A stretch of 64,000 nucleotides of DNA from contig JAIOOV010000004.1 in the NCBI GenBank assembly GCA_021414235.1, positions 254,456 through 318,455 of the forward strand, given 5' to 3'. Of the stretch, positions 32,518 to 56,361 are shown piece after piece. The notes beneath the pieces are model-generated. The model was not told the origin of the DNA, searched no databases, and saw nothing but the letters and a program-made list of their open reading frames with translations. This DNA comes from Candidatus Parcubacteria bacterium. GTDB taxonomy: Bacteria > Patescibacteriota > Minisyncoccia > Phycocordibacterales > JAKFXT01. A program made the translations under genes and the position numbers. How positions within the stretch are numbered: the first letter of the stretch is position 1; every line of letters starts with the position of its first letter.

Positions 32518-33645
32518 TTATTCTAGCGAAGCGAGAGCTTCTTTGGCTGCAGGCAGGTTCTTGTGATACAGAAGAGCCTTCTCGAACTCCGCGCGGGCTA
32601 GGTCAGACTTACCTTGCTTTTGGTAGCTTTTGCCTTTGAAGAGGTAGAGCTCGCTGTAGGCCCGGTTGCCGTCGTTCAATATATTGTCCGAGAGGGAGAA
32701 GACGCGAGCGTAGTTGCCGACATGATAGTAGGCCTCGATCGGTTCCATCTGGTACCACATGGTGCGGCGGGCGAGTTTGCTCTCGACTTTCTCATACTCC
32801 GCTACTGAGCGGGCGTAGTCGCCGAGGTAGTAGTAAGCGGTGGCGAGATTGAAGCGGGCCTTGGTGTCATTGGCATTCGTAGCGAGTTGGCTCTCGGCAA
32901 TCTTGATCGCCTTCTGCCAGGATGCTTTTGCATCTTTGCTCTCGCCGAGCGCGGCGTCTAAGCTCGCCTTATCCTTGGGATCAGCCATGACCACATACGC
33001 GTAGTTGAACGGTTTCCAAATCGCATTGAATTCGGCGTAGGTGTACGCCTTGTCCTTGCCTTGATATGAATCGTCCTGGATGATCACGCCACGTGCATCA
33101 TCGTAGCCGCGGATGACGCGATAGTGTGCGAAATCTTCGGTGGAATTGAGGAGGGTGCGGATGAGGACGGGATGGCCAGCAGCTAAGATTCTTTTGAGAG
33201 TATCGATATCGCCGCCGCCACGGTAATAGGCGACTAGGCCACGACGCTCTGCTTCCGCTGCGAGTTCGGGAGGAGGTGTGGACTTGTCGTCGTCGATACC
33301 CTGGAGATTGTTGTTGGGGCGGAGTACTGCTGCGAGCTTCTCCTGGCTGACATTTATATCGTAATAGGAGAGGGCGATGGAGAGACCTGCTGCGGCGCAG
33401 TTATTAAACGTCTGGAAGACATGGTAGCCGCTCGTAAGGAGTTTCTGCTTGGGAAGCGGGCCGCCAGAGGTTGCAGGCTTGCCGGATCCTGGCATCTCTG
33501 CGGCAGGAGTACCTCCGATGGTGAAGGTAGGCTCGGACCGGGCTCGCTCCTTGCCCTGGGCGAGGAAATAGAAAGCGCCACCGAAGCATAAGCTCAGGAA
33601 TACGCTGAGAGTGATAGCTATCTGTTTGAAGCTCATATCCTGCAT
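32518..33645 (-). CDS. peptidase C39-like domain protein with C-terminal TPR repeats, TM-anchored
   Basis: N-terminal TM helix; C39-like block NNCAAAGLSIALSYY...HYRVIRGYD; TPR repeats at the C-terminus; TAGTAT 6 nt upstream of the ATG on the minus strand. Confidence 0.6.
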   Translation of the reverse strand: MQDMSFKQIAITLSVFLSLCFGGAFYFLAQGKERARSEPTFTIGGTPAAEMPGSGKPATSGGPLPKQKLLTSGYHVFQTFNNCAAAGLSIALSYYDINVSQEKLAAVLRPNNNLQGIDDDKSTPPPELAAEAERRGLVAYYRGGGDIDTLKRILAAGHPVLIRTLLNSTEDFAHYRVIRGYDDARGVIIQDDSYQGKDKAYTYAEFNAIWKPFNYAYVVMADPKDKASLDAALGESKDAKASWQKAIKIAESQLATNANDTKARFNLATAYYYLGDYARSVAEYEKVESKLARRTMWYQMEPIEAYYHVGNYARVFSLSDNILNDGNRAYSELYLFKGKSYQKQGKSDLARAEFEKALLYHKNLPAAKEALASLE

Positions 33646-41504: not shown

Positions 41505-41547
41505 AAGGCCCACTCAGTCCCGATGGTTTGGGATTGAGTGGGCCTTG
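41505..41547. terminator. bidirectional terminator hairpin between convergent genes
   Basis: AAGGCCCACTCA-(18-nt loop)-TGAGTGGGCCTT, 12-bp perfect stem. Confidence 0.6.
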
Positions 41548-41570
41548 TGAGGTTGCTGCGAAGAACTAGA

Positions 41571-42632
41571 TCAGTTGGCCTTGTTCTCCTCCGGCGGGAA
41601 GTCCTCCGCTTTCGGGGCGCGCGGCTCGGGGATGACTCCCGGATTCATGACCCCCATCTTCATGAGATCGGAGGTCGTTTTCCGTTCGTCGGTCCTGTAG
41701 AAAGCCATGGCGACGTCGGCGCTCGACGAAGCGATGGTGGTCGCCGGCCCCTGGTAGGTGACGCTCTTGCCCGACGCCTGGTCGAGGTACTGGACGATGA
41801 CTGCGCAGCTGCCGATGCCGGTCGAAACCGTCCCGGAGCAGTTGAGCCAGCCGATCGTCTTGTCGCCCAGGGTGACTCGGGCATTCGCGAAGTTCGTGAA
41901 GCCGGAGGTTGCCCTCAGCTTCACGGCCAGATTGTTCGCCATCTCCGAGTAGGAGCTGACGTCGGTGTCGCTGTTGTTCGCGAAGTTCGTCTTGAAGCCG
42001 GCGTAGAGATCGGGAGCAGCGAAGCCGAGCTTTTCGATGGCGTCGAGGGCGTGCGCGCCGATCGACGAGATGGGGTTCGCGATGATGTTCGCCGACTGCC
42101 AGAAGTGGTCGAGCAGGTTCGGCGTCGTCGTCGTGTTCGTCCTGACGGTACGGTACGCTCGTCCGTCCGGCGACCAGATCGTCGGGGTCGTCACGCGCGG
42201 ATTGAACCACTCCCTCCCGGTGGGGAGGATGCGGAGCGACCGCGCGGTCGCCACGACCTTGTTGCTGACGGAGGTGTTGCCGCGCGCCATGAAGTGGAGC
42301 CGGTAGGCGACGTTCGCCTGGTTGGAGCCGGTGTCGTGGGTGACCGAGCCGTTGGGTTCGGTCACCGAGGTCCAGCTATTGATCGAGCCGGCGCCGAGGC
42401 CGAACTGATCGATCTCCGCCGACCAGAAGTTGGTCAGCGTTCCGGTGGTGTTTTCGCCGACGCAGGTGTAGTTGGTGCTGCTCTGCTTGGCGGCCGGGAC
42501 GACGGTCATGGGGAGGCCGTTGATGCCGCAGTCGAACGTCGCAGTCTGTGCCTTGGCCGGCACCGTGAGGAGGGTGAGGGGCAGAGCGACGATCAGGGCA
42601 GCAAGCGGAACGCGCTGACTTCTCGGAATCAT
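41571..42632 (-). CDS. secreted hypothetical protein, S/T/N-rich, higher GC than its surroundings
   Basis: Signal peptide MIPRSQRVPLAALIVALPLTLLTVPAKA; AAGGAG SD; roughly 62% GC. Confidence 0.5.
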   Translation of the reverse strand: MIPRSQRVPLAALIVALPLTLLTVPAKAQTATFDCGINGLPMTVVPAAKQSSTNYTCVGENTTGTLTNFWSAEIDQFGLGAGSINSWTSVTEPNGSVTHDTGSNQANVAYRLHFMARGNTSVSNKVVATARSLRILPTGREWFNPRVTTPTIWSPDGRAYRTVRTNTTTTPNLLDHFWQSANIIANPISSIGAHALDAIEKLGFAAPDLYAGFKTNFANNSDTDVSSYSEMANNLAVKLRATSGFTNFANARVTLGDKTIGWLNCSGTVSTGIGSCAVIVQYLDQASGKSVTYQGPATTIASSSADVAMAFYRTDERKTTSDLMKMGVMNPGVIPEPRAPKAEDFPPEENKAN

Positions 42633-42767
42633 GGTGAGCTCCTTGCTCAGGTGATGCCCGCCACGCGGGCGGGGTTGTTTACGACAAAGGCCAAACTGGC
42701 TGCTTATATATGTATCATATTATTTGCCTCTTGTCAAATAGGTATCGGACAGGTTTAGGGAAGGGGA

Positions 42768-42797
42768 GTTGACAGAGAGGGGTGTAGCGTGTTAGAC
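42768..42797 (+). promoter_or_regulatory. candidate promoter for the giant surface-protein gene (TTGACA-18-TAGACT)
   Basis: TTGACAgagaggggtgtagcgtgtTAGACT, ~230 nt upstream of the ATG at 43033. Confidence 0.3.
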
Positions 42798-43032
42798 TCA
42801 ATTAACTGCTCAAAAGCGAGCGTATAAATATGGCCTAACAAGGCCATTTATCTTGTCCCTTAAAAATATGTCCTAAACGATTTTTCGAAGCTTCTCTTCC
42901 GTTTACGCAAGTATCTGGAAGGGAAACTAGAATGTCCTTTAGGTGTCCTTTAAGCCGAAAAATCGCGATGTCGCGTCTCGGCTCTGGTTGTTTCCGTATC
43001 TCTTTACCCAATTTTATTTCGTGGAAAAGAGT

Positions 43033-46000
43033 ATGGAACACCCACTCTTCAAGGGGTCTTTCGGGACTTCCTACAACCACATAGCTTCCGCTAAGAACTT
43101 TTTCAAAGGGTTTGTTTTTGCTGTTTTTGTACTCACCGCTTTTTCCCCTTTCTCTACGCTTGCAGAAGCTTCGGTTGTCTTGGAGAAGTCGGAGATTGTC
43201 GCTTCCCAGAGCACCTCTGTGGGAGCGCAGATCAGCCATGTTTTTGAGACGATTTACGCTGGTATTTCTACCGTCGGAAGCGATCTCCTGGACGTGCTTG
43301 AGGTTCCCGCTGCAGCCGCTGGCGTGAAGCTTATTCTCATCGTCGCCATGCTCCTCTCGGCGCTCGCCGGATTTGAGAAAATGCTGGCTCTGCTCAAGGG
43401 TTTTGGTCAGGCGGTGCGGGGCCGTAACCGCTCTCTCCTCGTGCCGGTTTTGAAGGTCGCTTTGATCATGATCGTAGTCTTTGCAAACGTCGGTGTGGTG
43501 CCGGCACTTTTCCCGGCAGTGGCGGTTCAGGTGGCACACGCAGACGATGATTTTGCTCCTCCTCCGCCGCCACCTCCTCCGCCACCCCCACCACCGCCGG
43601 TGGAGGTGTGTACGGATCCTACCGCTACGAACTACAACGGTTCTCTTCCGTGTACGTATCCGCCGACGACCTGTACAGACTCTGCTGCCAATAACTTTGG
43701 TGGGGCCTTGCCGTGTACGTACAACCCGCCTCCGGCGACCTCTTTCACCATCAGCGCTTCTGCTTCTGGTCTCGGTTCCATCTCTCCGTCTGGCTCTGTG
43801 TCCGTGACGCAGGGTAGCGCACAAACCTTCACCTTCACCCCGAACGCAGGGCATGAGGTGAGCTCTGTCATGGTGAATGGCGCGGCAGTGGCTACTTCTA
43901 CGAGCTACACGTTCTCGAACGTGCAGGCGAATGGCACCATCGCGGTGACTTTTGCAGCGACTCCGGGAGCGCCTACCTTCCCGGTAGTCGCGAGCGTCTC
44001 CGGCTTCGGTACCATCACACCTTCCGGTACTACGAGCGTAGCTTTGGGTACTTCACAGAGCTATACCTTCGCTGCGTCTGCTTCGAGCACGCTCACGGAC
44101 GTGCTGGTGGATGGAGTCTCTGTGGGTGCAGTCTCGACCTATTCCTTCTCTGACGTAGCCGCTACTCACACTATTTCTGCGATCTTCTCTTCGTACGTCA
44201 TCACCGTTTCTTCGAGCGGCAACGGCTCGGCAAATCCGACTGGTTCCGTGTATGTCGCAAATGGTGCCAGCGAGACCATCAATTTCCTCCCGAATGCAGG
44301 TAACACTGTTTCCTCCCTCATCGTGGATGGTCTTGCGACTGCCACCTCGACTTCCTACACTTTCAGCAACGTCACCCAGGATCACACCCTCGCAGTGACC
44401 TTCGCTCCGGGTTCGAGCGCAGCCAGCTTCCAGGTGGTAGCTACTTCTACCGGAAATGGCTCGATCAGCCCTTCGGCCACCACTTCTGTGACTCAGGGGG
44501 CAACGCAGTCCGTCACTATCACTGCTAACAGCGGCAACGAGATCGCTTCCATTCTCGTGGATGGGGCAGCCTTCGCGACCACTTCTGCCACCACCACGAC
44601 CGTCACTTTCTCTAACATCCAGGCTAACCACAGCGTGGGTGCGACTTTCCAGGTCATTCCGGGTGCAGCCACTTTCCCGATCACAGTCACTTCCTCTGGA
44701 AACGGTACGACTACTCCGAGCGGAATCACGACGGTAAGCCAGGGTGCAACTGCTTCCTTCGCCCTCACCCCGAACGCGGGGAATACCCTGAGCCAGCTTC
44801 TCGTGGATGGTGTCTCTGTCGCTACTACCTCGGTTTATACGTTTAATAATGTAACTGCTTCTCATACTCTCGCGGCCATTTATTCCTCGACTGGTGCCGC
44901 AACTTTCTCTATAGTCGCTACTTCTACCGGCAACGGCTCCGTCACGCCTGCTGCAACGACTACCGTCTCGCAGGGCGGTAGCCAGTCTGTAGTGATCACC
45001 GCTAACTCCGGCAATGAAATCGCATCTATTCTTGTCGATGGGGCAGTGGTAGCAACGACTTCTGCAACTACCACTACGATTTCCTTCAGCAACGTGCAGG
45101 CTGATCACACAGTCGGTGTCACTTTCGCACCTATTGCTGGAGTCGCTACTTTCCCGATCATCGTTACCTCGACAGGGAATGGCACCACGACTCCTTCTGG
45201 CACTACTACGGTCGCCCAGGGGTCTTCTGCATCTTTCACTCTGACTCCGAACGCAGGCAACACCCTTAACTTCCTTCTTATAGACGGGGCTGCGGTCGCG
45301 ACTACTTCTCTCTATACGTTTAATAACGTTCAGGCGACGCACACCCTCGAAGCTGTCTACTCTACGAGCGGTGCGGCTTCATATCAGATAGTGGCGACGT
45401 CCACTGGCAACGGCTCGGTGAATCCTTCTGCAACGACTACTGTTTCGCAGGGAGCGACGCAGTCTGTCGTCATTACCGCTAATAGCGGCAACGAGATCTC
45501 TTCGATTCTCGTAGATGGTGCGATGTATGCGACTACTTCCGCTACCACCACTACGGTGACTTTCTCTGATGTGCAGGCGAACCACACCGTGGGTGCGACC
45601 TTCGCTCCTATAGTCGGAGCCCCGACCTACTCTATATATGTATCCTCCACAGGGAACGGAACTACCACTCCCTCTGGAACCTCGACGATCTCTCAGGGCT
45701 CTTCGGCTTCCTTCACTCTCACTCCGAACGCAGGCAATACCCTTACTCAGCTCCTCATCGACGGAGCTTCTGTCGCCACGACCTCTGTCTATACCTTTAG
45801 TAATGTCACAGCCTCTCATACTCTTGAAGCAATCTACTCTTCTACTGGCGCTACCTCCTTCCAGGTCGTAGCAACCTCGACTGGTAACGGTTCGGTGAGT
45901 CCTTCTGCTACCTCGACGGTTGCCCAGGGAGCTTCGATCTCTGTCACCGTGACAGCGAATGCGGGCAACGAGATCGCATCCATCCTTGTAGACGGAGCGA

Positions 46001-49000
46001 CTGTCGCTACGACTTCGGCTACTTCCACCACGATTACGTTTGCTGACGTGCAGGCGAATCACACGGTAGGTGCGACCTTCCAGCTTGCTGCAGGTGCACC
46101 GGTGTTCCCGATCACGGTTACTTCTTCTGGCAACGGCACGACGACCCCGTCTGGCACCTCGACTATTAGTCAGGGTTCTTCTGCGAGCTTCACGCTCACC
46201 CCGAACGCAGGTAACGTCTTGAACCAGCTTCTCGTAGATGGAGTTTCCGTCGCGACGACTTCTGTCTATGCGTTTAATAATGTAAATGCGACGCACACGC
46301 TCCACGCGATCTACTCTTCGACTGGTGCTTCTACTTTCTCTATCATTGCTACCTCTACCGGGAATGGGGGAGTGAGCCCGGCAGCCACCTCGACTGTCTC
46401 TCAGGGTTCTGCCTTCTCGGTAACCGTCACCGCAAATGTGGGAAATGAAATCGCTTCTCTCCTCGTGGATGGAGTTTCCTACGCCACTACCTCTCCGACT
46501 TCCACGGTGGTGACCTTCTCTGATATCCAGGCTGATCACACCGTTGGTGTCACTTTTCAGACTGCGGTCGGCGCACCGACGTTCCTGATCGTCGTAACTT
46601 CGACGGGTAATGGCACCACCACTCCGAGCGGTACTACTACCGTGACTCAAGGTGCTTCCTCCTCCTTTACTCTTACCCCGAATGCAGGCAACACTCTCAC
46701 TCAGCTCCTCATTGATGGCGCCTCTGTAGCGACGACGAGCGTCTACACTTTCTCTAATGTCACCGCGAGCCATACTCTCGAGGCTATCTATTCCACTGGC
46801 GGCGGCACCACCTTCCAGGTAGTCGCTACTTCTACTGGTAATGGCTCCGTCACGCCTGCTGCAACGACTACTGTCTCGCAGGGCTCTAGCCAGTCGATTG
46901 TCATCACTGCCAACTCTGGCAATGAAATAGCCTCTATCCTCGTCGATGGAGTCTCTGTAGCGACGACTTCGGCAACGACTACCACGATCATGTTTGCTGA
47001 TATCCAGGCAAATCACACGGTCGGCGTGACTTTTGCCGCTATCGCAGGCGCACCTACATACGCCATCAGCGTGACCTCTGCGGGTAATGGCACCACCACT
47101 CTGAGCGGCACCTCGACCGTCAGCCAGGGAAGTTCTGCTTCCTTCACTCTCACGCCGAACGCCGGTAACACCCTGTCGCAGCTTCTCGTAGACGGAGTCT
47201 CTGTTGCGACCACCTCTATATATACGTTCTCGAACGTGACGGCCTCGCACACCCTCCATGCGGTTTACTCTTCGACCGGTCTCGCTACCTTTAGCGTAAT
47301 CGCCACTTCTACGGCGGGCGGTTCCGTGACGCCTTCTGCAACGAGTACGGTCTCCCAGGGTTCTAACTTCTCGGTGACGGTGACTGCAAACAACGGCAAC
47401 GAGATCGCTTCTCTCCTCGTGGACGGAGCCGTTGTCGCCACTACTTCCGCCACCACCACGACGGTAACCTTCTCGAACGTGCAGGCAAATCACACGGTCG
47501 GCGTGGTCTTCCAGCCTCTCGTCGGTGCACCTACCTATCCGATTACGGTGACCTCGGCAGGGAACGGTACCACCACGCCGTCTGGTACGACTATCGTCAC
47601 TCAGGGCGGATCGGCTACCTTTACTCTCACCCCGAATGCGGGCAATGTCTTGAGCCAGCTTCTCGTAGACGGATCTTCCGTCGCGACCACCTCTGCCTAC
47701 ACTTTCTCTGACGTGACGGCGACGCACACGCTCCACGCAATCTACTCTTCGACGGGTGCCGCGAACTTCCAGATAGTTGCTACCTCTACCGGCAACGGTT
47801 CCGTAACGCCTTCCGCCACTTCCGCTGTCTCCCAGGGCTCTGCCTTCTCTGTGACAGTGACTGCAAACGCGGGAAATGAGATCGCGTCCATCCTCGTCGA
47901 TGGCGCACTCGTTGCGACGACGTCGGCTACGACGACCACTATAAATTTCACTAACGTCCAGGCTAATCACACTGTAGGTGCCACTTTCCAGGTAATCACT
48001 GGAGCTTCGACTTATCCCATCACCGTGACCTCGGCAGGGAACGGTACTACTACGCCTTCAGGCACCAGCACAATCGCACAGGGCTCTTCTGCCTCCTTCA
48101 TCCTGACTCCGAATGCAGGTAATACTCTCGACCAGCTCCTCATCGATGGTGTTGCGGTTGCGACCACTACTCTCTATACGTTCAATAATGTAAATGCGAC
48201 GCACACCCTCCATGCGATCTATTCCTCGACTGGTCTCACGAGCTTCCAGATAGTCGCCACTTCGACCGGCAACGGCTCGGTGACTCCGGCTGCCACTACT
48301 ACCGTATCGCAGGGCTCTAGCCAGTCTGTCGTCATTACGGCGAACGCGGGTAATGAGATCACCTCCATTCTCGTGGATGGGGCAGCCTTCGCGACCACTT
48401 CTGCCACCACCACGACCGTAACGTTCGCTGATGTTCAGGCGAATCACACGTTGGGTGTGGTGTTTGCGGCTGCGCCTTCCGCAGTTACTTTCCCGATCAC
48501 TGTCACTTCTACCGGTAACGGAGCTGCTACTCCCTCTGGCACGACCGCTGTGCTCCAGGGCAATTCTTTCTCTGTGACGCTTATGCCGAATGCCGGCAAT
48601 ACCCTTGATTCTCTCCTTGTAGATGGAGTATCTGTGGCTACCACTTCCGTCTATACCTTCACGAACGTTCAGGCGACGCATACCCTCCAGGCTATCTACT
48701 CCGCTACGGGCGCAACTTCCTTCCAGGTGGTGGCCACCTCGACGGGGAACGGATCTGTTTCTCCTTCTGCCACCACCACGGTCTCTCAGGGGGCATCGCA
48801 GTCTGTGATCATCACTGCGAACGCGGGTAATGAGATCACCTCCATTCTCGTGGATGGCGCTTCCTACGCTACGACCTCGGCCACTACCACGACGGTGACT
48901 TTTGCGAACATGCAGGCCAATCACACGGTCGGCGTAGTCTTCGCTCCTGCGGTACCTGTGGTTTCGTTCCCGATTACCATAACTTCGACCGGTAATGGCA

Positions 49001-52000
49001 CGACGACTCCGAGCGGTACCACTACTGTCACCCAGGGTGCTTCTGTCTCTTTCGCTCTGACTCCGAATGCAGGAAATACTCTCAATCAGATTCTCATCGA
49101 TGGTGTAGCGGTTGCAACCTCGAGTGTCTACACATTCACGAACGTACAGGCGACGCACACCCTCGAAGCGATTTACTCCACGAGCGGCGTTGCCTCATAC
49201 CAGATCGTCGCCACTTCTACTGGTAACGGGGGAGTGAGCCCGGCTGCCACTTCCACTGTCTCTCAGGGATCTAACTTCTCTGTGACGGTGACTGCAAACT
49301 CTGGTAACGAGATTTCTTCCATCCTTGTTGATGGCGTTTCCTATGCAACGACCTCGCCGACTTCGACGGTGGTTTCCTTCTCTGACGTTCAGGCGAACCA
49401 CACTGTAGGTGTGACCTTCGCAGCCATCACTGGCGCTCCGACTTTCCCGATCGTAGTCACCTCGACTGGTAATGGTACGGCGACTCCATCTGGCACCTCT
49501 ACTATCAGCCAGGGTGCTTCTGCTTCTTTTAATCTCACCCCGAACGCAGGCAACACCCTCACCCAGCTCCTCATTGATGGTGCCTCTGTCGCTACGACTT
49601 CGGTATATACGTTCAGCAACGTAACTGCTTCCCATACCCTTGAGGCCATCTACTCCACGACGGGTGCAGTGAGCTTCCAGATAGTGGCAACTTCGACTGG
49701 TTATGGCACGACTACACCTGCGGCGACTTCTACTGTCTCTCAGGGTTCTAGCTTCTCCGTCACGGTGACGGCGAACGCTGGTCAGGAAATCGCTTCTCTT
49801 CTTGTGGATGGAGCTGCATACGCCACCACCTCTCCGACTTCCACTATTGTGACCTTCACTAATGTGCAGGCTGACCACACGGTAGGTGCTACGTTCCAGA
49901 CTGCCGCTGATGCACTCTCGTTCCCGATCATCATCACTTCGACCGGTAACGGCACAACGACTCCCTCGGGCACCTCTACGGTTGCTCAGGGTACTTCGGC
50001 TTCCTTTGCTCTCACTCCGAACGCAGGTAACACGCTGACTCAGCTTGTCGTTGATAATGTGTCTGTACCGACGACTTCTCTCTATACGTTCACCAACGTC
50101 CAGGCAACGCATACTCTCCACGCGATCTACTCTTCGACGGGAGCCGCGAACTTCCAGGTCGTAGCCATCTCGACTGGCAATGGTTCTGTATCACCGGCCG
50201 CGACTTCTACAGTGAGCCAGGGTTCCAGCTTCTCCGTCACTGTGACCGCTAACAGCGGCAACGAGATCGCCTCGATTCTCGTTGATGGTGCCCTCGTTGC
50301 GACGACCTCGGCTACCACTACGACCATCACCTTCACTAATGTGCAGGCTGACCACACGGTTGGTGCTACGTTCCAGGGTGTCGTCGGAGCGCCGACGTAT
50401 CCCATCACGGTAACCTCGGCAGGGAACGGCACCACTACTCCGTCTGGCACGACGACTGTGGCAGAGGGGAGTGCGGCCTCTTTCACTCTGACTCCGAACG
50501 CGGGTAATACCATTGATCAGCTCTTGATCGACGGTGTTTCCGTGGCGACCACCACTCTCTATACCTTCTCTAATGTCACCGCCTCCCATACTGTTCATGC
50601 GATCTACTCTTCGACCGGCGCCTCTTCCTTCCAGGTTGTGGCCACTTCGACTGGAAGCGGCAGCGTAAGTCCGTCTGCCACCAGCACGGTTTCGCAGGGT
50701 GCATCCCAGTCTGTGGTCATCACCGCCAATGTGGGCAACGAAATCGCCTCCATCCTCGTGGATGGTGCAGCAGTTGCTACCACTTCTGCTACCACCACTA
50801 CGGTGACCTTCACGAACGTACAGGCTGACCATACGGTGGGCGTGACCTTCGCACCCATCTCCGGGGCTCCTACCTACGCTATTCTTGTGACTTCTACCGG
50901 CAACGGAACCTCGACTCCGTCTGGTACCACTACCGTGACTCAGGGTGCGTCCGCCTCTTTCAATCTCACCCCGAACGCTGGTAACACCCTCACCCAGCTC
51001 CTCATTGATGGAGCGGCGGTTGCCACCACCTCTCTCTATACCTTCTCCAGCGTAACGGCCTCTCATACCCTCGAAGCGATTTACTCTTCGACGGGCGTTG
51101 CGAACTTCCAGCTTGTCGCTACCTCCACGGGTAATGGCTCGGTGACTCCGTCTGCTACCACCACGGTTTCGCAGGGTACGACTCAGACCGTTACAATTAC
51201 TGCGAATAGCGGTAATGAGATCGCTTCCATCCTTGTGGATGGCGTGACCTACGCCACCACGTCTCCGACTTCTACGGTCGTGGCCTTTGCTGATGTCCAG
51301 GCGAATCACACGGTGGGTGTGGTGTTTGCTCCGGCTGCGAGTGCGCTCGCGTTTCCGATCACTGTCACCTCGACGGGGAACGGCACCACTACACCTTCTG
51401 GTACGACGACCGTAACCCAGGGTGGATCCGCAACCTTCACCATCTCTCCTAACGTCGGAAATACCATCCAGTCTGTCACGGTGAACGGCTCGGTCATCGC
51501 CACGACCACTTCCTATACCTTCTCTAATGTCCAGGCGACGGGTACACTCGCGGTCGTCTTTGCGACGATCAGTGGCGCGCCTTCCTTCGATATCGTAGCG
51601 ACTTCCTCTGTAAACGGTTCCGTAAGTCCTACCGGCACGACTACGCTCGCACAGGGCGGCAGCCAGACCTATGTCTTCACTCCGGATTCCGGATATATGG
51701 TGACGGGTCTCATGGTGGATGGGGGAGCGGTCTCCACTTCGACTTCGTATACCTTCTCTGATGTGCAGGCAGGTCACACCCTCTCCGTGACCTTCGGTCT
51801 TGCCCCTGATTTCAGTCTTCCTTCCACGCCGAACATCGTCTCTTCTTCGCATGCGACCGCCACTCTCTCGAATGTCGCGTCCATCTCCGTGACCTGGTCT
51901 GATGCGACGGATGTAGGCTCCGGTATCGCCGGCTATTCCTATATCTTCGACACCGCGAGCACGACAGTACCAGATGACATCGTGGATATTGCTGCGACCA

Positions 52001-54285
52001 CCACTTCTACTTCCACTCTTGCGTACGGCACCTACTACTTCCACGTGAAGGCGATCGATGCTTCTGGAAATGTCTCTACGACGACCCACTACGGACCGAT
52101 CGTGACCTCGAATGCGGATGTCTTCATCGTGAATTCGACTCTTGGCGGCATCTACTACGATTTCTATGCGCCGACTCTCGCAAGTTCGACTGCAGCGTCC
52201 ACTACCGGCAGCACCCGCATCACGGATTCCACTCTCACCACCTGGTGGCAGATTGCGAGCTCCTCGCTCTATGGCGTGACGCTCGACAATGCTGAGCTGA
52301 CCCTTACGAACGCGACCAGCTCGTCCATCACCAATTCCATACTCACGAGCTGTTCCGTGATCAATTCCACGGTCAAGAACTACATGGGCTCGAACTGCAC
52401 CATCAGCAATTCCATCGTCGACCCTCCGTCAGGCTTCAACAATCTCACTGGCTCCACGGTGACCAATTCGCCGGTGTATGCCTCGGACGTCCTCTACTCG
52501 AACGTGACCGATTCCTCGGTCTCTACTTCGACGGTGACTAACTCGACCCTTACGAACGCCACGACTACGTTCTCGAGCATCGCTACTTCCACGGTGACGA
52601 ACAGCACTTTCGCGACAGCGACTTCGACCAACAGCACGATCACCGGCGCAACTCTCGCTGATGCGAATGTGGCTACCTCGACCGTCTCTAACGCGAACGT
52701 AGCTACGAGCACCATTGCTCTCTCCACTATTTCCGGAGGCTCCGTCTCGAGCTCTACGGTTTCCTCTGTCTCTGCGACTAACAGCACTATCGCAAGCTCC
52801 ACGCTCTCGAATGCGACGACGACCTCTTCGACTCTCACGAACGTCGAAGTGACGAACGGCACGACTACGGGCAGCACCATTACTGGCGGCACTCTCTCCA
52901 ATGCATCCGTCTCTTCTTCTACTCTGACTGATGCGGTTATCAACAACGGAAGTACGACCAACAGCACGATCACTGGTGGCTCAGTAACGAACGCATCCGT
53001 CTCTTCTTCGACCATCTCGAATACCACGGTTGCTACCTCCACTCTGACTAACGTGACTCTGGCTTCCACCACAGTGACCAATTCGACCATGTCGAGTTCC
53101 ACGCTCTCGGATGCGACCGTTACAGACTCGACTCTCTCGAACGTGACCATCATCGGCACGGGCTCCGTGATCACCAACTCCAACCTGGCCTCGACCACGG
53201 TCTCTAACGCGGTCATCATCGATGGCGTCATGAGTTCTGGTACCATCACGCTTCCGTCGGGAGCTACGACTACCATCACGAGCTCTACCTCGCTTACGAA
53301 CCTGGTCAACTACGCTCCGGCCGCAGGCTTCACTGCTTCCGCAAGTGACCTCACGGGCACGTTTACGGATACGAGCACTGACTCGAACTCTGGCACTTCT
53401 CTCGGGGATAGCTGGACGTATGTCTGGAGCTTCGGCGACGGCTCCTACGCGACTACCTCAAACTCTGCCTCTCTCGGTCAGAACAAGAGTCATGCGTACG
53501 CTTCTGCAGGAACTTACACTGTCCTCCTCACGCTCACTGATGCATACGGCGGCGTGTCTACTTCCTCGGCTTCCGTCACGGTCACTGCTCCAGTGGTGGT
53601 CACGCCCGCTCCTTCAGGCGGTGGTGGCGGCGGGGGCAATCCTTCCGGCAACCTCGGGGCATACTTCAATCCGAACTTCGTAAATCCGAACGCTCCGGTA
53701 GTCCCTGTTGTGCCACCGGTGACCCCTGTGACTCCGTCTGTTCCCGCTGTTCCTCCCATCATTGTCACTCCCGGACTCACTCCTGATGTCTTCACTCGCA
53801 CTCTCAAGGTCGGCACCCGCGGCGAGGATGTCACCATCCTCCAGAGGCAGCTGATCCGTGAGGGCGTGTATGCAGGCCCGGTGACCGGCTACTTCGGAGC
53901 CCTCACGCAGGCGGCTGTGCGCCGCTACCAGCTGAAGCAGGCTATCCCTGTCATCGGCATCGTGGACTTCCTCACCCGCAGCATTCTCAACGAAGCCATT
54001 GCTCTTGAGGGCCTTCCGACCGGGAATCCCGTCATTGTCACTCCAGTTGCTCCGACGCCTGTAGAACCCAAGCCGGCAGCACCGGTCACTCCTAAGGCTC
54101 CGACGATACCTTCGAAGCCGCTTGCTCCTGCCGCACCGGTCACTCCTCCTGTGGTAGCGAAGCCTTCCGTTCCGCCTACCTCTGCTTCCATCTTTGAGGG
54201 AGTGAAGAGCGGCGCTTCGTCTCTCTTCAAGAAGGTGAAGGATGCCAAGACTCGCTTCGACAATCTCTTCATCATCGAACCGTAA
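43033..54285 (+). CDS. giant multidomain cell-surface protein (~3750 aa), domain architecture as given in the evidence field
   Basis: Single uninterrupted ORF (the tool ORF starts at GTG 42943; first in-frame ATG at 43033 with a GGAAAAGAG SD). N-terminus has a signal-like segment plus two further hydrophobic segments and a polyproline tract. Repeat modules match the pattern V..S.GNG.V.P.G...V.QG....T.TANAGNEI.S..VDG.....S.T...TF.NV.A.HTV...F. FN3-like segment: ISVTWSDATD...GYSY...YYFHVKAIDASGN. S/T/N-rich decapeptide-repeat (beta-helix-like) region. PKD motif WSFGDGSYATTSN...HAYASAGTYTVLLTLTDAYG. PG_binding_1 domain: GTRGEDVTILQRQLIREGVYAGPVTGYFGALTQAAVRRYQL. Confidence 0.85.
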   Translation: MEHPLFKGSFGTSYNHIASAKNFFKGFVFAVFVLTAFSPFSTLAEASVVLEKSEIVASQSTSVGAQISHVFETIYAGISTVGSDLLDVLEVPAAAAGVKLILIVAMLLSALAGFEKMLALLKGFGQAVRGRNRSLLVPVLKVALIMIVVFANVGVVPALFPAVAVQVAHADDDFAPPPPPPPPPPPPPPVEVCTDPTATNYNGSLPCTYPPTTCTDSAANNFGGALPCTYNPPPATSFTISASASGLGSISPSGSVSVTQGSAQTFTFTPNAGHEVSSVMVNGAAVATSTSYTFSNVQANGTIAVTFAATPGAPTFPVVASVSGFGTITPSGTTSVALGTSQSYTFAASASSTLTDVLVDGVSVGAVSTYSFSDVAATHTISAIFSSYVITVSSSGNGSANPTGSVYVANGASETINFLPNAGNTVSSLIVDGLATATSTSYTFSNVTQDHTLAVTFAPGSSAASFQVVATSTGNGSISPSATTSVTQGATQSVTITANSGNEIASILVDGAAFATTSATTTTVTFSNIQANHSVGATFQVIPGAATFPITVTSSGNGTTTPSGITTVSQGATASFALTPNAGNTLSQLLVDGVSVATTSVYTFNNVTASHTLAAIYSSTGAATFSIVATSTGNGSVTPAATTTVSQGGSQSVVITANSGNEIASILVDGAVVATTSATTTTISFSNVQADHTVGVTFAPIAGVATFPIIVTSTGNGTTTPSGTTTVAQGSSASFTLTPNAGNTLNFLLIDGAAVATTSLYTFNNVQATHTLEAVYSTSGAASYQIVATSTGNGSVNPSATTTVSQGATQSVVITANSGNEISSILVDGAMYATTSATTTTVTFSDVQANHTVGATFAPIVGAPTYSIYVSSTGNGTTTPSGTSTISQGSSASFTLTPNAGNTLTQLLIDGASVATTSVYTFSNVTASHTLEAIYSSTGATSFQVVATSTGNGSVSPSATSTVAQGASISVTVTANAGNEIASILVDGATVATTSATSTTITFADVQANHTVGATFQLAAGAPVFPITVTSSGNGTTTPSGTSTISQGSSASFTLTPNAGNVLNQLLVDGVSVATTSVYAFNNVNATHTLHAIYSSTGASTFSIIATSTGNGGVSPAATSTVSQGSAFSVTVTANVGNEIASLLVDGVSYATTSPTSTVVTFSDIQADHTVGVTFQTAVGAPTFLIVVTSTGNGTTTPSGTTTVTQGASSSFTLTPNAGNTLTQLLIDGASVATTSVYTFSNVTASHTLEAIYSTGGGTTFQVVATSTGNGSVTPAATTTVSQGSSQSIVITANSGNEIASILVDGVSVATTSATTTTIMFADIQANHTVGVTFAAIAGAPTYAISVTSAGNGTTTLSGTSTVSQGSSASFTLTPNAGNTLSQLLVDGVSVATTSIYTFSNVTASHTLHAVYSSTGLATFSVIATSTAGGSVTPSATSTVSQGSNFSVTVTANNGNEIASLLVDGAVVATTSATTTTVTFSNVQANHTVGVVFQPLVGAPTYPITVTSAGNGTTTPSGTTIVTQGGSATFTLTPNAGNVLSQLLVDGSSVATTSAYTFSDVTATHTLHAIYSSTGAANFQIVATSTGNGSVTPSATSAVSQGSAFSVTVTANAGNEIASILVDGALVATTSATTTTINFTNVQANHTVGATFQVITGASTYPITVTSAGNGTTTPSGTSTIAQGSSASFILTPNAGNTLDQLLIDGVAVATTTLYTFNNVNATHTLHAIYSSTGLTSFQIVATSTGNGSVTPAATTTVSQGSSQSVVITANAGNEITSILVDGAAFATTSATTTTVTFADVQANHTLGVVFAAAPSAVTFPITVTSTGNGAATPSGTTAVLQGNSFSVTLMPNAGNTLDSLLVDGVSVATTSVYTFTNVQATHTLQAIYSATGATSFQVVATSTGNGSVSPSATTTVSQGASQSVIITANAGNEITSILVDGASYATTSATTTTVTFANMQANHTVGVVFAPAVPVVSFPITITSTGNGTTTPSGTTTVTQGASVSFALTPNAGNTLNQILIDGVAVATSSVYTFTNVQATHTLEAIYSTSGVASYQIVATSTGNGGVSPAATSTVSQGSNFSVTVTANSGNEISSILVDGVSYATTSPTSTVVSFSDVQANHTVGVTFAAITGAPTFPIVVTSTGNGTATPSGTSTISQGASASFNLTPNAGNTLTQLLIDGASVATTSVYTFSNVTASHTLEAIYSTTGAVSFQIVATSTGYGTTTPAATSTVSQGSSFSVTVTANAGQEIASLLVDGAAYATTSPTSTIVTFTNVQADHTVGATFQTAADALSFPIIITSTGNGTTTPSGTSTVAQGTSASFALTPNAGNTLTQLVVDNVSVPTTSLYTFTNVQATHTLHAIYSSTGAANFQVVAISTGNGSVSPAATSTVSQGSSFSVTVTANSGNEIASILVDGALVATTSATTTTITFTNVQADHTVGATFQGVVGAPTYPITVTSAGNGTTTPSGTTTVAEGSAASFTLTPNAGNTIDQLLIDGVSVATTTLYTFSNVTASHTVHAIYSSTGASSFQVVATSTGSGSVSPSATSTVSQGASQSVVITANVGNEIASILVDGAAVATTSATTTTVTFTNVQADHTVGVTFAPISGAPTYAILVTSTGNGTSTPSGTTTVTQGASASFNLTPNAGNTLTQLLIDGAAVATTSLYTFSSVTASHTLEAIYSSTGVANFQLVATSTGNGSVTPSATTTVSQGTTQTVTITANSGNEIASILVDGVTYATTSPTSTVVAFADVQANHTVGVVFAPAASALAFPITVTSTGNGTTTPSGTTTVTQGGSATFTISPNVGNTIQSVTVNGSVIATTTSYTFSNVQATGTLAVVFATISGAPSFDIVATSSVNGSVSPTGTTTLAQGGSQTYVFTPDSGYMVTGLMVDGGAVSTSTSYTFSDVQAGHTLSVTFGLAPDFSLPSTPNIVSSSHATATLSNVASISVTWSDATDVGSGIAGYSYIFDTASTTVPDDIVDIAATTTSTSTLAYGTYYFHVKAIDASGNVSTTTHYGPIVTSNADVFIVNSTLGGIYYDFYAPTLASSTAASTTGSTRITDSTLTTWWQIASSSLYGVTLDNAELTLTNATSSSITNSILTSCSVINSTVKNYMGSNCTISNSIVDPPSGFNNLTGSTVTNSPVYASDVLYSNVTDSSVSTSTVTNSTLTNATTTFSSIATSTVTNSTFATATSTNSTITGATLADANVATSTVSNANVATSTIALSTISGGSVSSSTVSSVSATNSTIASSTLSNATTTSSTLTNVEVTNGTTTGSTITGGTLSNASVSSSTLTDAVINNGSTTNSTITGGSVTNASVSSSTISNTTVATSTLTNVTLASTTVTNSTMSSSTLSDATVTDSTLSNVTIIGTGSVITNSNLASTTVSNAVIIDGVMSSGTITLPSGATTTITSSTSLTNLVNYAPAAGFTASASDLTGTFTDTSTDSNSGTSLGDSWTYVWSFGDGSYATTSNSASLGQNKSHAYASAGTYTVLLTLTDAYGGVSTSSASVTVTAPVVVTPAPSGGGGGGGNPSGNLGAYFNPNFVNPNAPVVPVVPPVTPVTPSVPAVPPIIVTPGLTPDVFTRTLKVGTRGEDVTILQRQLIREGVYAGPVTGYFGALTQAAVRRYQLKQAIPVIGIVDFLTRSILNEAIALEGLPTGNPVIVTPVAPTPVEPKPAAPVTPKAPTIPSKPLAPAAPVTPPVVAKPSVPPTSASIFEGVKSGASSLFKKVKDAKTRFDNLFIIEP
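43743..51800 (+). repeat. coding tandem repeat array (~16 units of ~480 nt, each unit being two ~80-aa domains) inside the giant gene
   Basis: Recurring nucleotide blocks such as ttccaggt(c/g)gt(a/g)gc(c/a)ac(t/c)tc(g/t)ac(t/c)gg(c/t)aa(c/t)gg and actccgaacgcaggcaa; all antisense ORFs across this span are artifacts. Confidence 0.85.
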
Positions 54286-54293
54286 TCAAAAAG

Positions 54294-54330
54294 AAAAAGC
54301 CCCGCGCACTGCGCGGGGCTTTTTCTTTTC
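54294..54330. terminator. bidirectional intrinsic terminator, copy 1 of a repeated 30-nt element
   Basis: AAGAAAAAGCCCCGCGCA-ct-GCGCGGGGCTTTTTCTTTTC. Confidence 0.8.
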
Positions 54331-54332
54331 AG

Positions 54333-55049
54333 TTACTTTATCAACGTCTCCACGACCTCCTTCATGTCTGCGTAGGGAAGCGCTCCTTCAAGCGGGATCT
54401 TGTCACCGTTCTTGGTGAGGATCACACTGTAGGGCGTACCACGGGTTCCTGCGGAGATTCCATCCGCATGGTCAGCGTCCACCTTGGCTTTGGTGCGGCG
54501 CTCGCTAGTGCACTTGGCGAAGGCGGCTGCGTCGAGGCCAGCATATGCGGCGATCTTGGGGAGTTCCGCGGCGTCCAAGCCGTCATTTGAGGGGGTGATT
54601 TCGTAGAGGCGATCAGCGTACTTCCAGAAGGCAGTATTGCCTCCGAGCTCGGCGGCGCATTCGATGGCTTCGGCTTCCGCCTGGGCTTTAGTGTGAAGTT
54701 CTGGGATGGGGAAGTGGCGATACACCCAAGCGACGGATCCGTTCGCTCCGTACTCGCTCATGATGCGCTTCATGGTGGCATGGAAGCTCTTACAGAACGG
54801 ACACTCGGGGTCGGAATATTCTACGATCACTACCTTGGCATCCGGGTTTCCGAGGATGTGCTCATTCGCGCTGACTGCGCGAAGAGATATCTCCTGAGGA
54901 GTGCCCGGGGTCACTCCGGTAGAAGGAGTGCTGCGGGTGTAGAGGACAGAACCGGCGATGAGGACGCCGGCAAGCACGATGGCGATGGGGATTCCGAGCG
55001 AACTTTTAGTCTCTGGCATAGGGGTCGAAAAGCGATTAATGGACTGCAT
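54333..55049 (-). CDS. DsbA-like thiol:disulfide oxidoreductase, membrane-anchored
   Basis: TM anchor then thioredoxin fold with a CPFC active site; the tool ORF start (55115) is TTG; ATG candidates at 55049 and 55019. Confidence 0.7.
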   Translation of the reverse strand: MQSINRFSTPMPETKSSLGIPIAIVLAGVLIAGSVLYTRSTPSTGVTPGTPQEISLRAVSANEHILGNPDAKVVIVEYSDPECPFCKSFHATMKRIMSEYGANGSVAWVYRHFPIPELHTKAQAEAEAIECAAELGGNTAFWKYADRLYEITPSNDGLDAAELPKIAAYAGLDAAAFAKCTSERRTKAKVDADHADGISAGTRGTPYSVILTKNGDKIPLEGALPYADMKEVVETLIK

Positions 55050-55077
55050 TATATCATGCGCTATACTGAGCCTAATT

Positions 55078-55554
55078 ATGAAGGATTTACTCAATAAGAA
55101 GGCCCCGGATTTCAATCTGCTTGATCAGGATGGGAAGAAACACAAGCTCTCGGGGTACCGTGGGCAGCCAGTCCTCCTCTATTTCTACCCCAAGGACATG
55201 ACGCCGGGATGTACCATAGAGGCTGAGACATTTCAGGATCGCTCTAAGGAATATGCCAAAGCGGGTATCGTCATCCTCGGGATGAGTCCGGATACGCCGG
55301 AATCTCACAAGAAATTCTGTGATAAGCACAAGCTCTCTTTCACTCTCCTTGCGGACAAGGATCATCTGGTCGCGGAGAAGTATGGCGTTTGGGTAGAGAA
55401 GAGCATGTACGGTAAGAAATACTGGGGTGTGGAGCGTGATTCCTACCTCATCGACAAAGAAGGTAAGGTAGTCGCTCAGTATCAGAAAGTGAAGCCAGAA
55501 GAGCATCCGGAAGAGGTGCTCGCTGATGCCAAGCGTCTCGGGCTTACGAAATAA
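55078..55554 (+). CDS. bcp: thioredoxin-dependent thiol peroxidase Bcp (peroxiredoxin Q)
   Basis: APDFNLLDQDGKKHKLSGYRGQPVLLYFYPKDMTPGCT motif; 158 aa from MKDLLNKK. Confidence 0.85.
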   Translation: MKDLLNKKAPDFNLLDQDGKKHKLSGYRGQPVLLYFYPKDMTPGCTIEAETFQDRSKEYAKAGIVILGMSPDTPESHKKFCDKHKLSFTLLADKDHLVAEKYGVWVEKSMYGKKYWGVERDSYLIDKEGKVVAQYQKVKPEEHPEEVLADAKRLGLTK

Positions 55555-55557
55555 TCC

Positions 55558-56361
55558 ATGGATCTCTTTCAAGCGCTGATACTCGGCGTCGTCCAAGGGC
55601 TCACTGAGTTCCTGCCGGTCTCTTCTACGGGCCATCTTATTCTTGCTCGGGATATCCTCGGCATCAATGTGCCCTCAGGCCTTGCGGTGGACGCGGTGCT
55701 GCAGCTTGCCACTATCCTTGCGGTGGGAGTGTATTTTGCGCGCGATCTCTGGCGTCTCTTCCTTACTGGAGCGAAGTGGATCATGCGCCGAGCAGTATCG
55801 GATGAAGATCGTACGCTCCTCCTTGCTGTCATCTACGGCACCATCCCAGCCATCATTATCGGGTTGCTCCTCGAGAGCTATATGGAAACTGTCTTCCGGA
55901 GTGCGGGGCTGGTGGCGCTCATGCTTGTTGTAGGAAGTTTTCTGTTCCTCTTTGCTGAAAGGATCGCTACGCAGGCAGGCGCACTTACGCCCGGGAAGGG
56001 CTTCCTCATCGGTTTGTTTCAATGTCTCGCCCTCATCCCTGGTATGTCGCGCTCCGGCTCCACTATCGCCGGAGGCCTTATCCTCGGGCTTACTCGGGAG
56101 GCGGCCGCTCGCTTCTCCTTCATCCTCTCTTTTCCCATCATCGTAGGCTCTGGAGCCAAGAAATTCCTGGAGCTCTCTAACGAACACCTACTCGGTGCCA
56201 TGGGAGTGCCTCTCCTCATGGGCTCATTCGTTGCCTTCCTCGTGGGGCTCGCGGCGATTCATTTCCTCATCCGCTACCTGCGCACGCACAGCTTGGCCGT
56301 ATTTACGTACTATCGTTTCGCGCTCGCAGCTGCGGTCATCGCGTTTCTCTTTTTCCGCTAA
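55558..56361 (+). CDS. uppP: undecaprenyl-diphosphatase
   Basis: MDLFQALILGVVQGLTEFLPVSSTGHLIL and 8 TM helices. Confidence 0.9.
   Translation: MDLFQALILGVVQGLTEFLPVSSTGHLILARDILGINVPSGLAVDAVLQLATILAVGVYFARDLWRLFLTGAKWIMRRAVSDEDRTLLLAVIYGTIPAIIIGLLLESYMETVFRSAGLVALMLVVGSFLFLFAERIATQAGALTPGKGFLIGLFQCLALIPGMSRSGSTIAGGLILGLTREAAARFSFILSFPIIVGSGAKKFLELSNEHLLGAMGVPLLMGSFVAFLVGLAAIHFLIRYLRTHSLAVFTYYRFALAAAVIAFLFFR

Follow-up and report, generated by a model that had tools for sequence, protein, structure and literature searches.

A giant alternating Flg_new_2 repeat protein of a Parcubacterium, a candidate envelope-attached fibre

Closest described systems

Among fibrillar adhesins, Flg_new counts as a stalk domain (Monzon et al., PMC9210967; bioRxiv 10.1101/2020.12.07.414375). 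A giant gene with a stalk of this kind is described here from a 64,000-nucleotide stretch of a Candidatus Parcubacteria genome (contig JAIOOV010000004.1, positions 254,456 to 318,455), referred to as the window. The gene occupies positions 43033 to 54285 of the window. Its product is, with high confidence, an exported, envelope-attached fibre with a predicted stalk of 34 small beta-sandwiches, most of which alternate between two module types, A and B. The fuller reading is preferred but tentative. It describes a Sec-exported, envelope-tethered fibre that is anchored in the wall by its C-terminus, projects its stalk, resembles the fibrillar adhesins and serves in attachment. With those adhesins the protein shares a long secreted chain, a tandem beta-sandwich stalk of the InlB-B lineage, non-stalk domains and a candidate envelope anchor. 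It differs from them in that a recognised adhesive Pfam domain is absent and anchor features are present at both ends; for this protein, adhesion is a role that we infer.

Giant Flg_new_2 array proteins of other bacteria, many of them T9SS (type IX secretion system) cargo, are also found in a representative protein library (P0015-P0164). They are built of the same module family (29-52% identity), reach up to approximately 50 modules and 1,000-7,490 aa, and in some cases alternate. Unlike the protein in the window, they have single signal peptides and C-terminal T9SS sorting domains or transmembrane (TM) anchors.

Giant membrane or surface proteins of Candidate Phyla Radiation (CPR) bacteria have been proposed for host recognition or attachment (PMC8080830, PMC13059738). 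Those of Vampirococcus lugosii are 1,392-4,163 aa long (PMC8080830), and others are found in Strigamonas (PMC13059738). Like the protein in the window, they belong to Patescibacteria with ultrasmall genomes, are among the largest proteins of their genomes, are predicted to lie at the surface, contain PKD and Ig-like adhesion-type domains and have a proposed role in attachment. The differences are that these organisms are Absconditabacteria, rather than Parcubacteria/Paceibacteria, and that the domain set is another one; the likeness is drawn without a homology comparison. In view of these proposals, too, the novelty claim in a sequence-only reading of the window is overstated.

The stalk also invites comparison with three further groups. 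Periscope proteins (SasG, Rib and SHIRT-domain proteins) have repeats that are nearly identical in DNA. The giant protein has a tandem-repeat stalk of variable copy number like theirs, with 15 A-B pairs against 16 in an orthologue. Unlike theirs, its copies share 68% of nucleotides and 73% of amino acids, have saturated synonymous sites and keep positional orthology from one species to the other. Periscope proteins are mentioned in PMC9210967. Rfr-fold pentapeptide proteins and Thr-ladder solenoids (4yei/4yfo; Np275/276, 2j8k; budworm antifreeze protein, 1l0s) share a five-residue period, in which residue i is hydrophobic and points inward and residue i-2 is small; a predicted solenoid in the giant protein has the same pattern. 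This solenoid, in contrast, is predicted to be extracellular, is extremely Thr/Ser-rich, stays below threshold in Pfam, lies inside a cap-solenoid-PKD cassette and is modelled without confidence.

The RTX-type giant adhesin MpIBP of Marinomonas is anchored at its N-terminus; an Ig-like extender follows, and the C-terminal part binds ligands and includes a beta-solenoid. The overall logic of the giant protein is similar, with a candidate anchor, an Ig-like extender of great length and, at one end, several domains that include a predicted beta-solenoid. Unlike the RTX adhesins, it has no RTX nonapeptide repeats or type I secretion signal (no HemolysinCabind or related Pfam match), its bearer is a monoderm-type CPR bacterium and its polarity is uncertain.

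The gene and its repeat array

The open frame from 42943 to 54285 on the plus strand contains no stop codon in a scan and translation of open reading frames (ORFs), and the ATG at 43033 gives a protein of 3,750 aa. The 11.3-kb gene is thus a single uninterrupted ORF, as the sequence-only reading had it. Gene callers choose the same ATG on a Logan contig from the same sample (L001) and on a Joint Genome Institute (JGI) contig from a related organism (L004). The JGI orthologue begins with the identical MEHPLFKGSFGT. The gene and its array are laid out as follows.

43033..54285, plus strand: giant gene, 3,750 codons and a stop, monocistronic (frame scan and translation; same start in L001, L004 and L005)
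43741..44427, plus strand: three degenerate Flg_new_2-like modules, aa 237-465 (register cut, custom module hidden Markov model)
44428..51582, plus strand: 15 canonical A-B pairs, aa 466-2850, 159 aa each, free of Lys and Arg (indel-free alignment)
51583..51807, plus strand: module 34, degenerate, aa 2851-2925 (register cut, custom module hidden Markov model)

The modules match Pfam Flg_new_2 (PF18998) in 10 stretches with 136.9 bits, against a cut-off of 23.6, and an E-value of 2e-40. This agrees with their description as divergent InlB B-repeats. A custom model built from the array counts 34 modules in all, 30 of which make up the 15 A-B pairs, and each of two anchor motifs recurs 15 times at a spacing of exactly 159 residues. 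The alternation noted from the sequence alone is real and the module endings, ANHTVGVTF and ASHTLEAIYSSTG, are correct. Adjacent modules are 45-47% identical and modules two apart are approximately 70% identical, a period-2 pattern. Whole pairs average 73% amino acid identity and 68% nucleotide identity (range 60-74%). Folding of one A-B pair had been named as a check on the module assignment; with the 15 pairs as the alignment, AlphaFold2 (AF2) models it as two beta-sandwiches with a predicted local distance difference test (pLDDT) score of 91.8.

Identity among the repeats at the three codon positions is 78/86/40%, the longest in-register exact run is 56 nt, and paralogous units have a mean synonymous difference (pS) of 0.68. 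Because nucleotide identity is low and synonymous sites are saturated, the repeats are old, with their similarity maintained by selection on the protein and not by recent duplication or gene conversion. Copies this divergent in DNA would not be collapsed by an assembler.

The 140-kb JGI contig Ga0502764_0000271 matches the window in gene order. Its orthologue, rebuilt from two pieces (L004 and L013) with an identical overlap of 3,332 nt, is uninterrupted and encodes 3,932 aa with 16 A-B pairs and a run of 33 prolines. Array units 1-7 and the last three are positional orthologues (81-94% identity, vs 55-82% off the diagonal), and the central units (8-12 in the window) have lost one-to-one orthology between the species. 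Since the pair number is 15 vs 16, the ends are orthologous and the centre is not, copy number changes in whole 159-aa pairs and in mid-array. The gene offers a clean natural case of an ancient tandem array whose only changes involve whole two-module units. A third orthologue is represented by its last 461 residues, found at one end of a Logan contig (L014) of a different run. It has the same order of parts and 75% identity, and its tail is almost unchanged.

Against the JGI orthologue, the ratio of nonsynonymous to synonymous change (dN/dS) is 0.07 in the array, 0.06 in the solenoid, 0.034 in the C-terminal PG_binding_1 domain, 0.10-0.20 in the N-terminal segments and 0.25 in two Cys loops that follow them. 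The neighbouring Ddl gene, used for comparison, has a value of 0.04. By these ratios the giant gene is under strong purifying selection, close to that on the housekeeping Ddl.

Logan short-read contigs from the source run (SRR15633504) break at both gene ends, at the polyproline tract (~43593) and just past the terminator (54298). The exact protein is also not on record in the protein collections searched, although neighbouring genes are present there. An assembly artefact, with collapsed or chimeric repeats, or a non-functional relic is nevertheless highly improbable. The repeat copies are too divergent for collapse to be likely, an independent JGI assembly contains the uninterrupted, syntenic orthologue with its ends in positional register, and dN/dS is approximately 0.07. 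The breaks reflect the difficulty of short-k-mer assembly and do not contradict the window. On this comparative evidence the giant gene is real and functional.

The 2,385-residue array contains no Lys, Arg, Cys or Trp and has 68 Asp and Glu residues, and is thus acidic. Trypsin sites are therefore absent from it, and Lys-based isopeptide bonds are impossible. The alternation, with neighbours approximately 47% and same-type modules approximately 73% identical, would plausibly limit misfolding between domains; it would plausibly also limit recombination, as the DNA copies are only 68% alike. It is a clean natural example of neighbouring domains kept dissimilar and same-type domains kept similar. 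The protein is valuable as a good specimen and does not introduce a new principle.

Thr (19%), Ser (14%), Ala (12%) and Val (11%) give the whole protein an extreme composition, and GC skew across the gene is -0.15 to -0.20. Both the negative skew and a set of long antisense ORFs are explained by this composition, which makes the gene rich in ACN, TCN, GCN and CCN codons. The antisense ORFs (several of 300-860 aa, at 44053-52089 on the minus strand) were rejected as genes and regarded as by-products of codon composition.

Ends of the protein, polarity and role

The two ends of the protein carry its candidate surface anchors, which are the N-terminal hydrophobic segments and the PG_binding_1 domain. 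The proposed anchoring to membrane and/or peptidoglycan is in line with these features. The N-terminal region contains five elements.

43108..43170, plus strand: hydrophobic segment 1, aa 26-46, signal-peptide-like, ending AEA/S (hydropathy; AEA site retained in the orthologue)
43309..43374, plus strand: hydrophobic segment 2, aa 93-114, followed by the basic loop EKMLALLKGFGQAVRGRNRS (hydropathy)
43435..43542, plus strand: hydrophobic segment 3, aa 135-170, ending AHA/DDD, in the orthologue AYA/DDD (hydropathy, orthologue comparison)
43558..43599, plus strand: polyproline tract, 14 P, aa 176-189, 33 P in the orthologue (sequence reading; Logan contig L001 breaks here)
43609..43716, plus strand: two C-x13-C loops, CTDPTATNYNGSLPC and CTDSAANNFGGALPC, the fastest-evolving part of the protein (70% identity, dN/dS 0.25 vs the orthologue)

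A signal-like segment and two more hydrophobic helices had been noted previously, and all three are found (aa ~26-46, ~93-114 and ~135-170). The polyproline tract is likewise present, with 14 residues instead of 15. The charges flanking the hydrophobic segments fit the positive-inside rule, and A-x-A sites occur twice, as AEA/S after segment 1 and AHA/DDD after segment 3. In the hydrophobic region, conservation equals that found elsewhere in the protein, with 87% identity to the orthologue and dN/dS of 0.10-0.20. Neither this region nor the C-terminal tail was found in other ORFs of the window or of the orthologous contigs.

The C-terminal block follows the array directly.

51808..52152, plus strand: Ig/E-set-like module, aa 2926-3040 (weak Y_Y_Y and TcfC matches; tandem Big_13 or Y_Y_Y in relatives)
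52153..52479, plus strand: conserved solenoid N-cap with the Cys pair C3107 and C3122 and the motif VKNY..C..S.S.VDP....LTG (three-way alignment with L007 and L008)
52480..53247, plus strand: pentapeptide-type beta-solenoid of approximately 50 pentapeptides, 45 in register, consensus N-S-T-[VLI]-[TSA] (periodicity, composition, profile matches)
53248..53607, plus strand: PKD domain, Pfam match at aa 3447-3517 (PKD_4; collagenase PKD in the PDB at 1e-16)
53608..53799, plus strand: Gly run and Pro-rich linker (sequence reading)
53818..53988, plus strand: PG_binding_1 domain, aa 3596-3652, the most constrained part, dN/dS 0.034 (Pfam, NCBIfam)
53998..54177, plus strand: second Pro-rich linker (sequence reading)
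54178..54282, plus strand: basic/aromatic amphipathic C-terminal tail SASIFEGVKSGASSLFKKVKDAKTRFDNLFIIEP, nearly unchanged in the two orthologues with a C-terminus

The first module of this block had been read as FN3-like. No fn3 match is found in the whole protein (Pfam, E<=0.1) or in aa 2926-3040 (E<=1). The best Pfam matches of aa 2926-3040 are Y_Y_Y (0.12) and TcfC (0.15), and the PDB gives one weak match (2yuw, E 0.32). The fn3 assignment is thus not supported, and the segment is a generic Ig/E-set-like sandwich.

The S/T/N-rich region described as beta-helix-like is real and more specific than that description, with 45 in-register pentapeptides. Its hydrophobicity autocorrelation is 0.33-0.40 at lags of 5/10/15/20/25 and negative at other lags. 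V, L or I occupies position 4 in 37 of the 45 pentapeptides (39 have a hydrophobic residue there), and S, A or G occupies position 2 in 39. The region thus has the sequence features of the pentapeptide family, tandem five-residue repeats whose centre is hydrophobic and whose i-2 residue is small. Family matches stay below cut-off (Pfam Pentapeptide_4, 18.5 vs 38 bits; NCBIfam HetL, 22.8 vs 260 bits). In the PDB, a profile of the cassette reaches 5e-5 with designed pentapeptide solenoids and 1e-16 with PKD domains of collagenases. A single-sequence AF2 model of the cassette has a mean pLDDT of 38. Only aa ~3255-3325 reach 70-76, with strand pattern EEE-- every five residues.

The PKD and PG_binding_1 domains, with their Pro-rich linkers, are as originally described. 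PKD_4 (PF18911/PF00801) scores 48.6 bits vs a cut-off of 27 (E 9e-13). PG_binding_1 (PF01471) scores 49.3 bits vs 23 (E 6e-13) over the full profile (1-57/57) and is predicted to bind peptidoglycan. The NCBIfam scan adds to the Pfam result only two partial matches, one HetL-like (pentapeptide) and one to the N-terminal region of SleB, the latter at the PG_binding_1 domain. No LPXTG motif is found in the protein. No T9SS sorting domain (Por_Secre_tail) is found in the last 229 aa, where only SleB-like/PGB and low-complexity matches occur.

An exhaustive phmmer search of the representative library with aa 2692-3750 finds 29,760 representatives at E<=1e-3, of which 1,938 reach E<=1e-30; architectures were surveyed in the best 150 of the 29,760. 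Arrays of the same module make up 143 of these 150, with up to approximately 50 copies and proteins of up to 7,490 aa. Most arrays are uniform, and a few have period 2 (P0022, P0025, P0027, P0046, P0087) or period 4 (P0017). N-termini in the best 150 are mostly single signal peptides. At the C-terminus, a hydrophobic, TM-like segment is present in 14 of the 150, often followed by a basic tail, and seven of eight high-scoring array relatives tested end in a T9SS type A sorting domain (TIGR04183). None of the best 150 has the three-segment N-terminus, a PG_binding_1 domain or this tail.

The Ig/E-set-like module, the Cys-capped solenoid and the PKD domain are common to six library proteins (P0019, P0032, P0043, P0045, P0069, P0109) and two metagenomic loci (L007, L008), at 41-52% identity. 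These have other stalks (Bact_surface_Ig-like, MBG_2) and other ends. After the solenoid and PKD domain, Dockerin_1 follows in P0069 and P0109 and a TM helix in L008; the end of P0019 is dockerin-like by eye only. P0032, P0043 and P0045 end in amphipathic basic tails. P0032 is named a YjbI-like pentapeptide-repeat protein in IMG.

Giant repeat proteins of this class are therefore very common, and there are precedents for the domains, for the alternation and for the role proposed. The claim that the architecture is new was too strong, given the 1,938 array representatives at E<=1e-30, the period-2 arrays elsewhere and the shared solenoid-PKD cassette. From these comparisons, the building blocks and their shuffling are ordinary. 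The parts particular to this lineage are the three-segment N-terminus, the polyproline tract, the Cys loops and the PG_binding_1 domain before the tail.

Other searches found less. The giant protein and its orthologues are not in the representative library, where the best identity is 52%. An orphan status cannot be concluded from this, because the known orthologues are missing from the databases as well. A word-index protein search returned 0, 2 and 0 matches for aa 1-175, one A-B pair and the start of the cassette, respectively. These negatives are uninformative, since phmmer later found 29,760 representatives and the known 3,932-aa orthologue had been missed. An A-B profile scan of genome contigs, in a collection without the source genome, found only two distant arrays, in metagenome-assembled genomes (MAGs) of an Eisenbacteria and a Gammaproteobacteria member.

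The preferred reading places the C-terminal block at the cell-proximal end of the fibre, and this is its weakest step. The PG_binding_1 domain, the proline linkers and the tail would hold the block non-covalently in the cell's own wall and at the membrane surface. The stalk would be pushed outward during export, N-terminus first. The N-terminal segment would either be cut at AHA/DDD, leaving a free distal tip with variable Cys loops, or be retained in the membrane, giving a looped, doubly tethered fibre. Anchoring at the C-terminus is favoured because relatives end in C-terminal TM helices, dockerins or T9SS sorting domains, in some cases after the same cassette. It is further supported by the constraint on the PG_binding_1 domain, the highest in the protein, and by the nearly unchanged tail. 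The fast evolution of the Cys-loop region and a conserved downstream DsbA gene are also cited for this reading.

The opposite polarity is possible but rather unlikely. This arrangement is near to that of the sequence-only reading. The N-terminal segments would then be a retained anchor, the polyproline would span the wall, the 34-module stalk would project outward, and the C-terminal block would be a distal head with affinity for another cell (host or sibling), for its wall glycan or peptidoglycan and perhaps its membrane. The N-terminal region suits this role, as it is conserved, polytopic and positive-inside and is followed directly after segment 3 by the polyproline. Binding precedents exist only for domains of the C-terminal block (PKD, PG_binding_1 and a solenoid with T-x-T-like ladders), and the layout resembles by analogy that of MpIBP. 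However, each recognisable anchor in the relatives is C-terminal and follows the same cassette, and in a monoderm a peptidoglycan-binding domain that leaves SecYEG last would meet the cell's own wall first. The polyproline has 14 prolines vs 33 in close orthologues, a difference of more than two-fold, and so is not tuned to wall thickness. Methanogenic archaea, moreover, have no murein, and since the known hosts are methanogens, binding of a host by a peptidoglycan-binding tip is an unsafe default. The only cultured Parcubacteria parasitise methanogenic archaea (PMC12281837). The comparative evidence thus favours a C-terminal wall anchor, whereas the conserved polytopic N-terminus and the polyproline favour an N-terminal one, and both may hold.

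The fibrous layer formed at the surface under C-terminal anchoring would contact other cells or surfaces, and attachment would be its function. A role in contact or adhesion is suggested by the fibrillar-adhesin architecture (PMC9210967), the proposals for giant surface proteins of CPR bacteria (PMC8080830, PMC13059738) and the episymbiotic life of cultured relatives (PMC12281837). Host adhesion by the giant protein would be an extension by analogy from such cases. Typical domain dimensions would give the stalk a length of roughly 120-140 nm, on the scale of the radius or diameter of such cells.

Several points weigh against this tentative account. A cleaved leader of 170 aa with three hydrophobic segments would, to our knowledge, be unprecedented. 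The conservation of the N-terminal region, its positive-inside charges and the adjacent polyproline argue for a retained membrane anchor. Conservation between species resembles that of a housekeeping enzyme, which is unusual for a host-facing adhesin. The length of the stalk is an estimate from typical domain sizes. The solenoid structure is suggested by periodicity and weak profile matches, with a poor AF2 model. The Pfam and NCBIfam scans find no recognised adhesive (ligand-binding) domain, so that the solenoid-PKD cassette is no more than a candidate for one.

Some of these points would suit a non-adhesive protein, a reading that is unlikely. The protein would be a structural component tethered at both ends, to the membrane and to the cell's own peptidoglycan, and would serve as a protective, protease-resistant fibrous coat or as a membrane-wall tether or spacer. 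Staphylococcus aureus Ebh, itself a giant repeat protein with a part in envelope integrity, offers an analogy. The anchor features at both ends, the housekeeping-like purifying selection over the whole length and the absence of an adhesive domain in the Pfam scan are consistent with such a role. So is the acidic array without Lys or Arg, which is typical of inert or protease-resistant surface layers. Nevertheless, a stalk of ~130 nm would far exceed any membrane-to-wall distance, and the Cys-loop region evolves three times faster than average, which suggests an exposed interaction site. Stalk-plus-cassette architectures are projecting fibres by precedent (PMC9210967).

A further suggestion, speculative and quite improbable, concerns the cassette. 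The Cys-capped Thr/Ser-ladder solenoid and the PKD domain, common to L007, L008, P0019, P0032, P0043, P0045, P0069 and P0109, would form an unrecognised extracellular module that binds glycans or crystalline surfaces. Here it would lie beside PG_binding_1 at the outer tip of a ~130-nm fibre and grapple the host wall, and the polyproline would be a spacer or a translational pause.

Within the CPR, the Parcubacteria form the largest branch and the least cultured one. The giant gene takes up 2% of a genome of ~0.5 Mb, is under purifying selection of housekeeping grade and is present in at least three related genomes. Its share of the genome and this selection make the protein a sensible target for antibodies, cryo-electron tomography and metaproteomics. 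The observation made from the sequence alone is confirmed, and its interpretation as an attachment fibre is partly supported.

Basic/aromatic amphipathic tails recur in P0032, P0043, P0045, P0054 and P0057, relatives that bear the cassette or an array and are all without TM, T9SS or dockerin ends. Short amphipathic C-terminal tails may be an unrecognised signal for envelope association or sorting.

Neighbouring genes and organism

The flanking proteins (MCE9644056-103) are recorded at NCBI as Candidatus Parcubacteria bacterium, on a contig of 544,218 bp. As had been stated, the giant gene is large relative to its genome, with 2.07% of the 544-kb contig of this Parcubacteria/CPR MAG. The rest of the window consists of housekeeping genes, among them those for IF-2, SerRS, HisRS, TopA, DnaX, ParB, RelA/SpoT, Ddl and UppP. 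The features around the giant gene are as follows.

27823-29358, minus strand: 511-aa protein with an N-terminal PG_binding_1 and a GH18 domain, 14 kb from the giant gene
41571-42632, minus strand: divergent hypothetical protein, 353 aa, with a clear signal peptide and no Pfam match, directly 5' of the giant gene
42769..42798, plus strand: promoter-like site TTGACA-18-TAGACT with a TG extension, ~235 nt 5' of the ATG (consensus scan only)
54289..54329, strand not assigned: palindromic terminator with a perfect 19-bp stem, between the convergent giant and DsbA genes and serving both

Since its upstream neighbour is divergent, the giant gene must have a promoter of its own. With DsbA convergent behind the terminator as well, the giant gene is monocistronic. 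A 406-aa ORF at 41538-42758 (plus strand) was rejected as a partner gene; it is Arg-rich antisense noise over the real minus-strand gene. The syntenic counterpart of the 41571-42632 hypothetical protein is 26% identical, with dN/dS of approximately 0.9. The gene may encode a fast-evolving secreted protein or may have been replaced.

The neighbouring wall hydrolases that had been put forward as context for adhesion are a weak argument. One SLT gene lies 3.3 kb upstream on the opposite strand and is 37% identical to its syntenic counterpart. Neither it nor the GH18 gene, 14 kb away, is co-transcribed with the giant gene. The PG_binding_1 domain of the GH18 protein is the only other one in the window and is similar to that of the giant protein (2e-9).

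Downstream (54333-56361) are genes for a convergent DsbA-family thioredoxin, an AhpC/Redoxin peroxidase and UppP, in an order kept in three genomes. The six cysteines of the giant protein form three close local pairs, which the adjacent DsbA could serve.

Literature mentions of the accession, the locus tag or the run identifiers were not found. A fusion of a secreted-type Peptidase_C39_2 (papain-like) domain and TPR repeats is encoded at 32518-33645 (minus strand) and is conserved in the syntenic contigs L004 and L005. The orthologous contigs also carry SET-domain genes, two adjacent in L013 (64-956 and 2537-2995) and one in L014 (10990-11409). Downstream of the part that matches the end of the window, L013 contains a GcrA-like gene.

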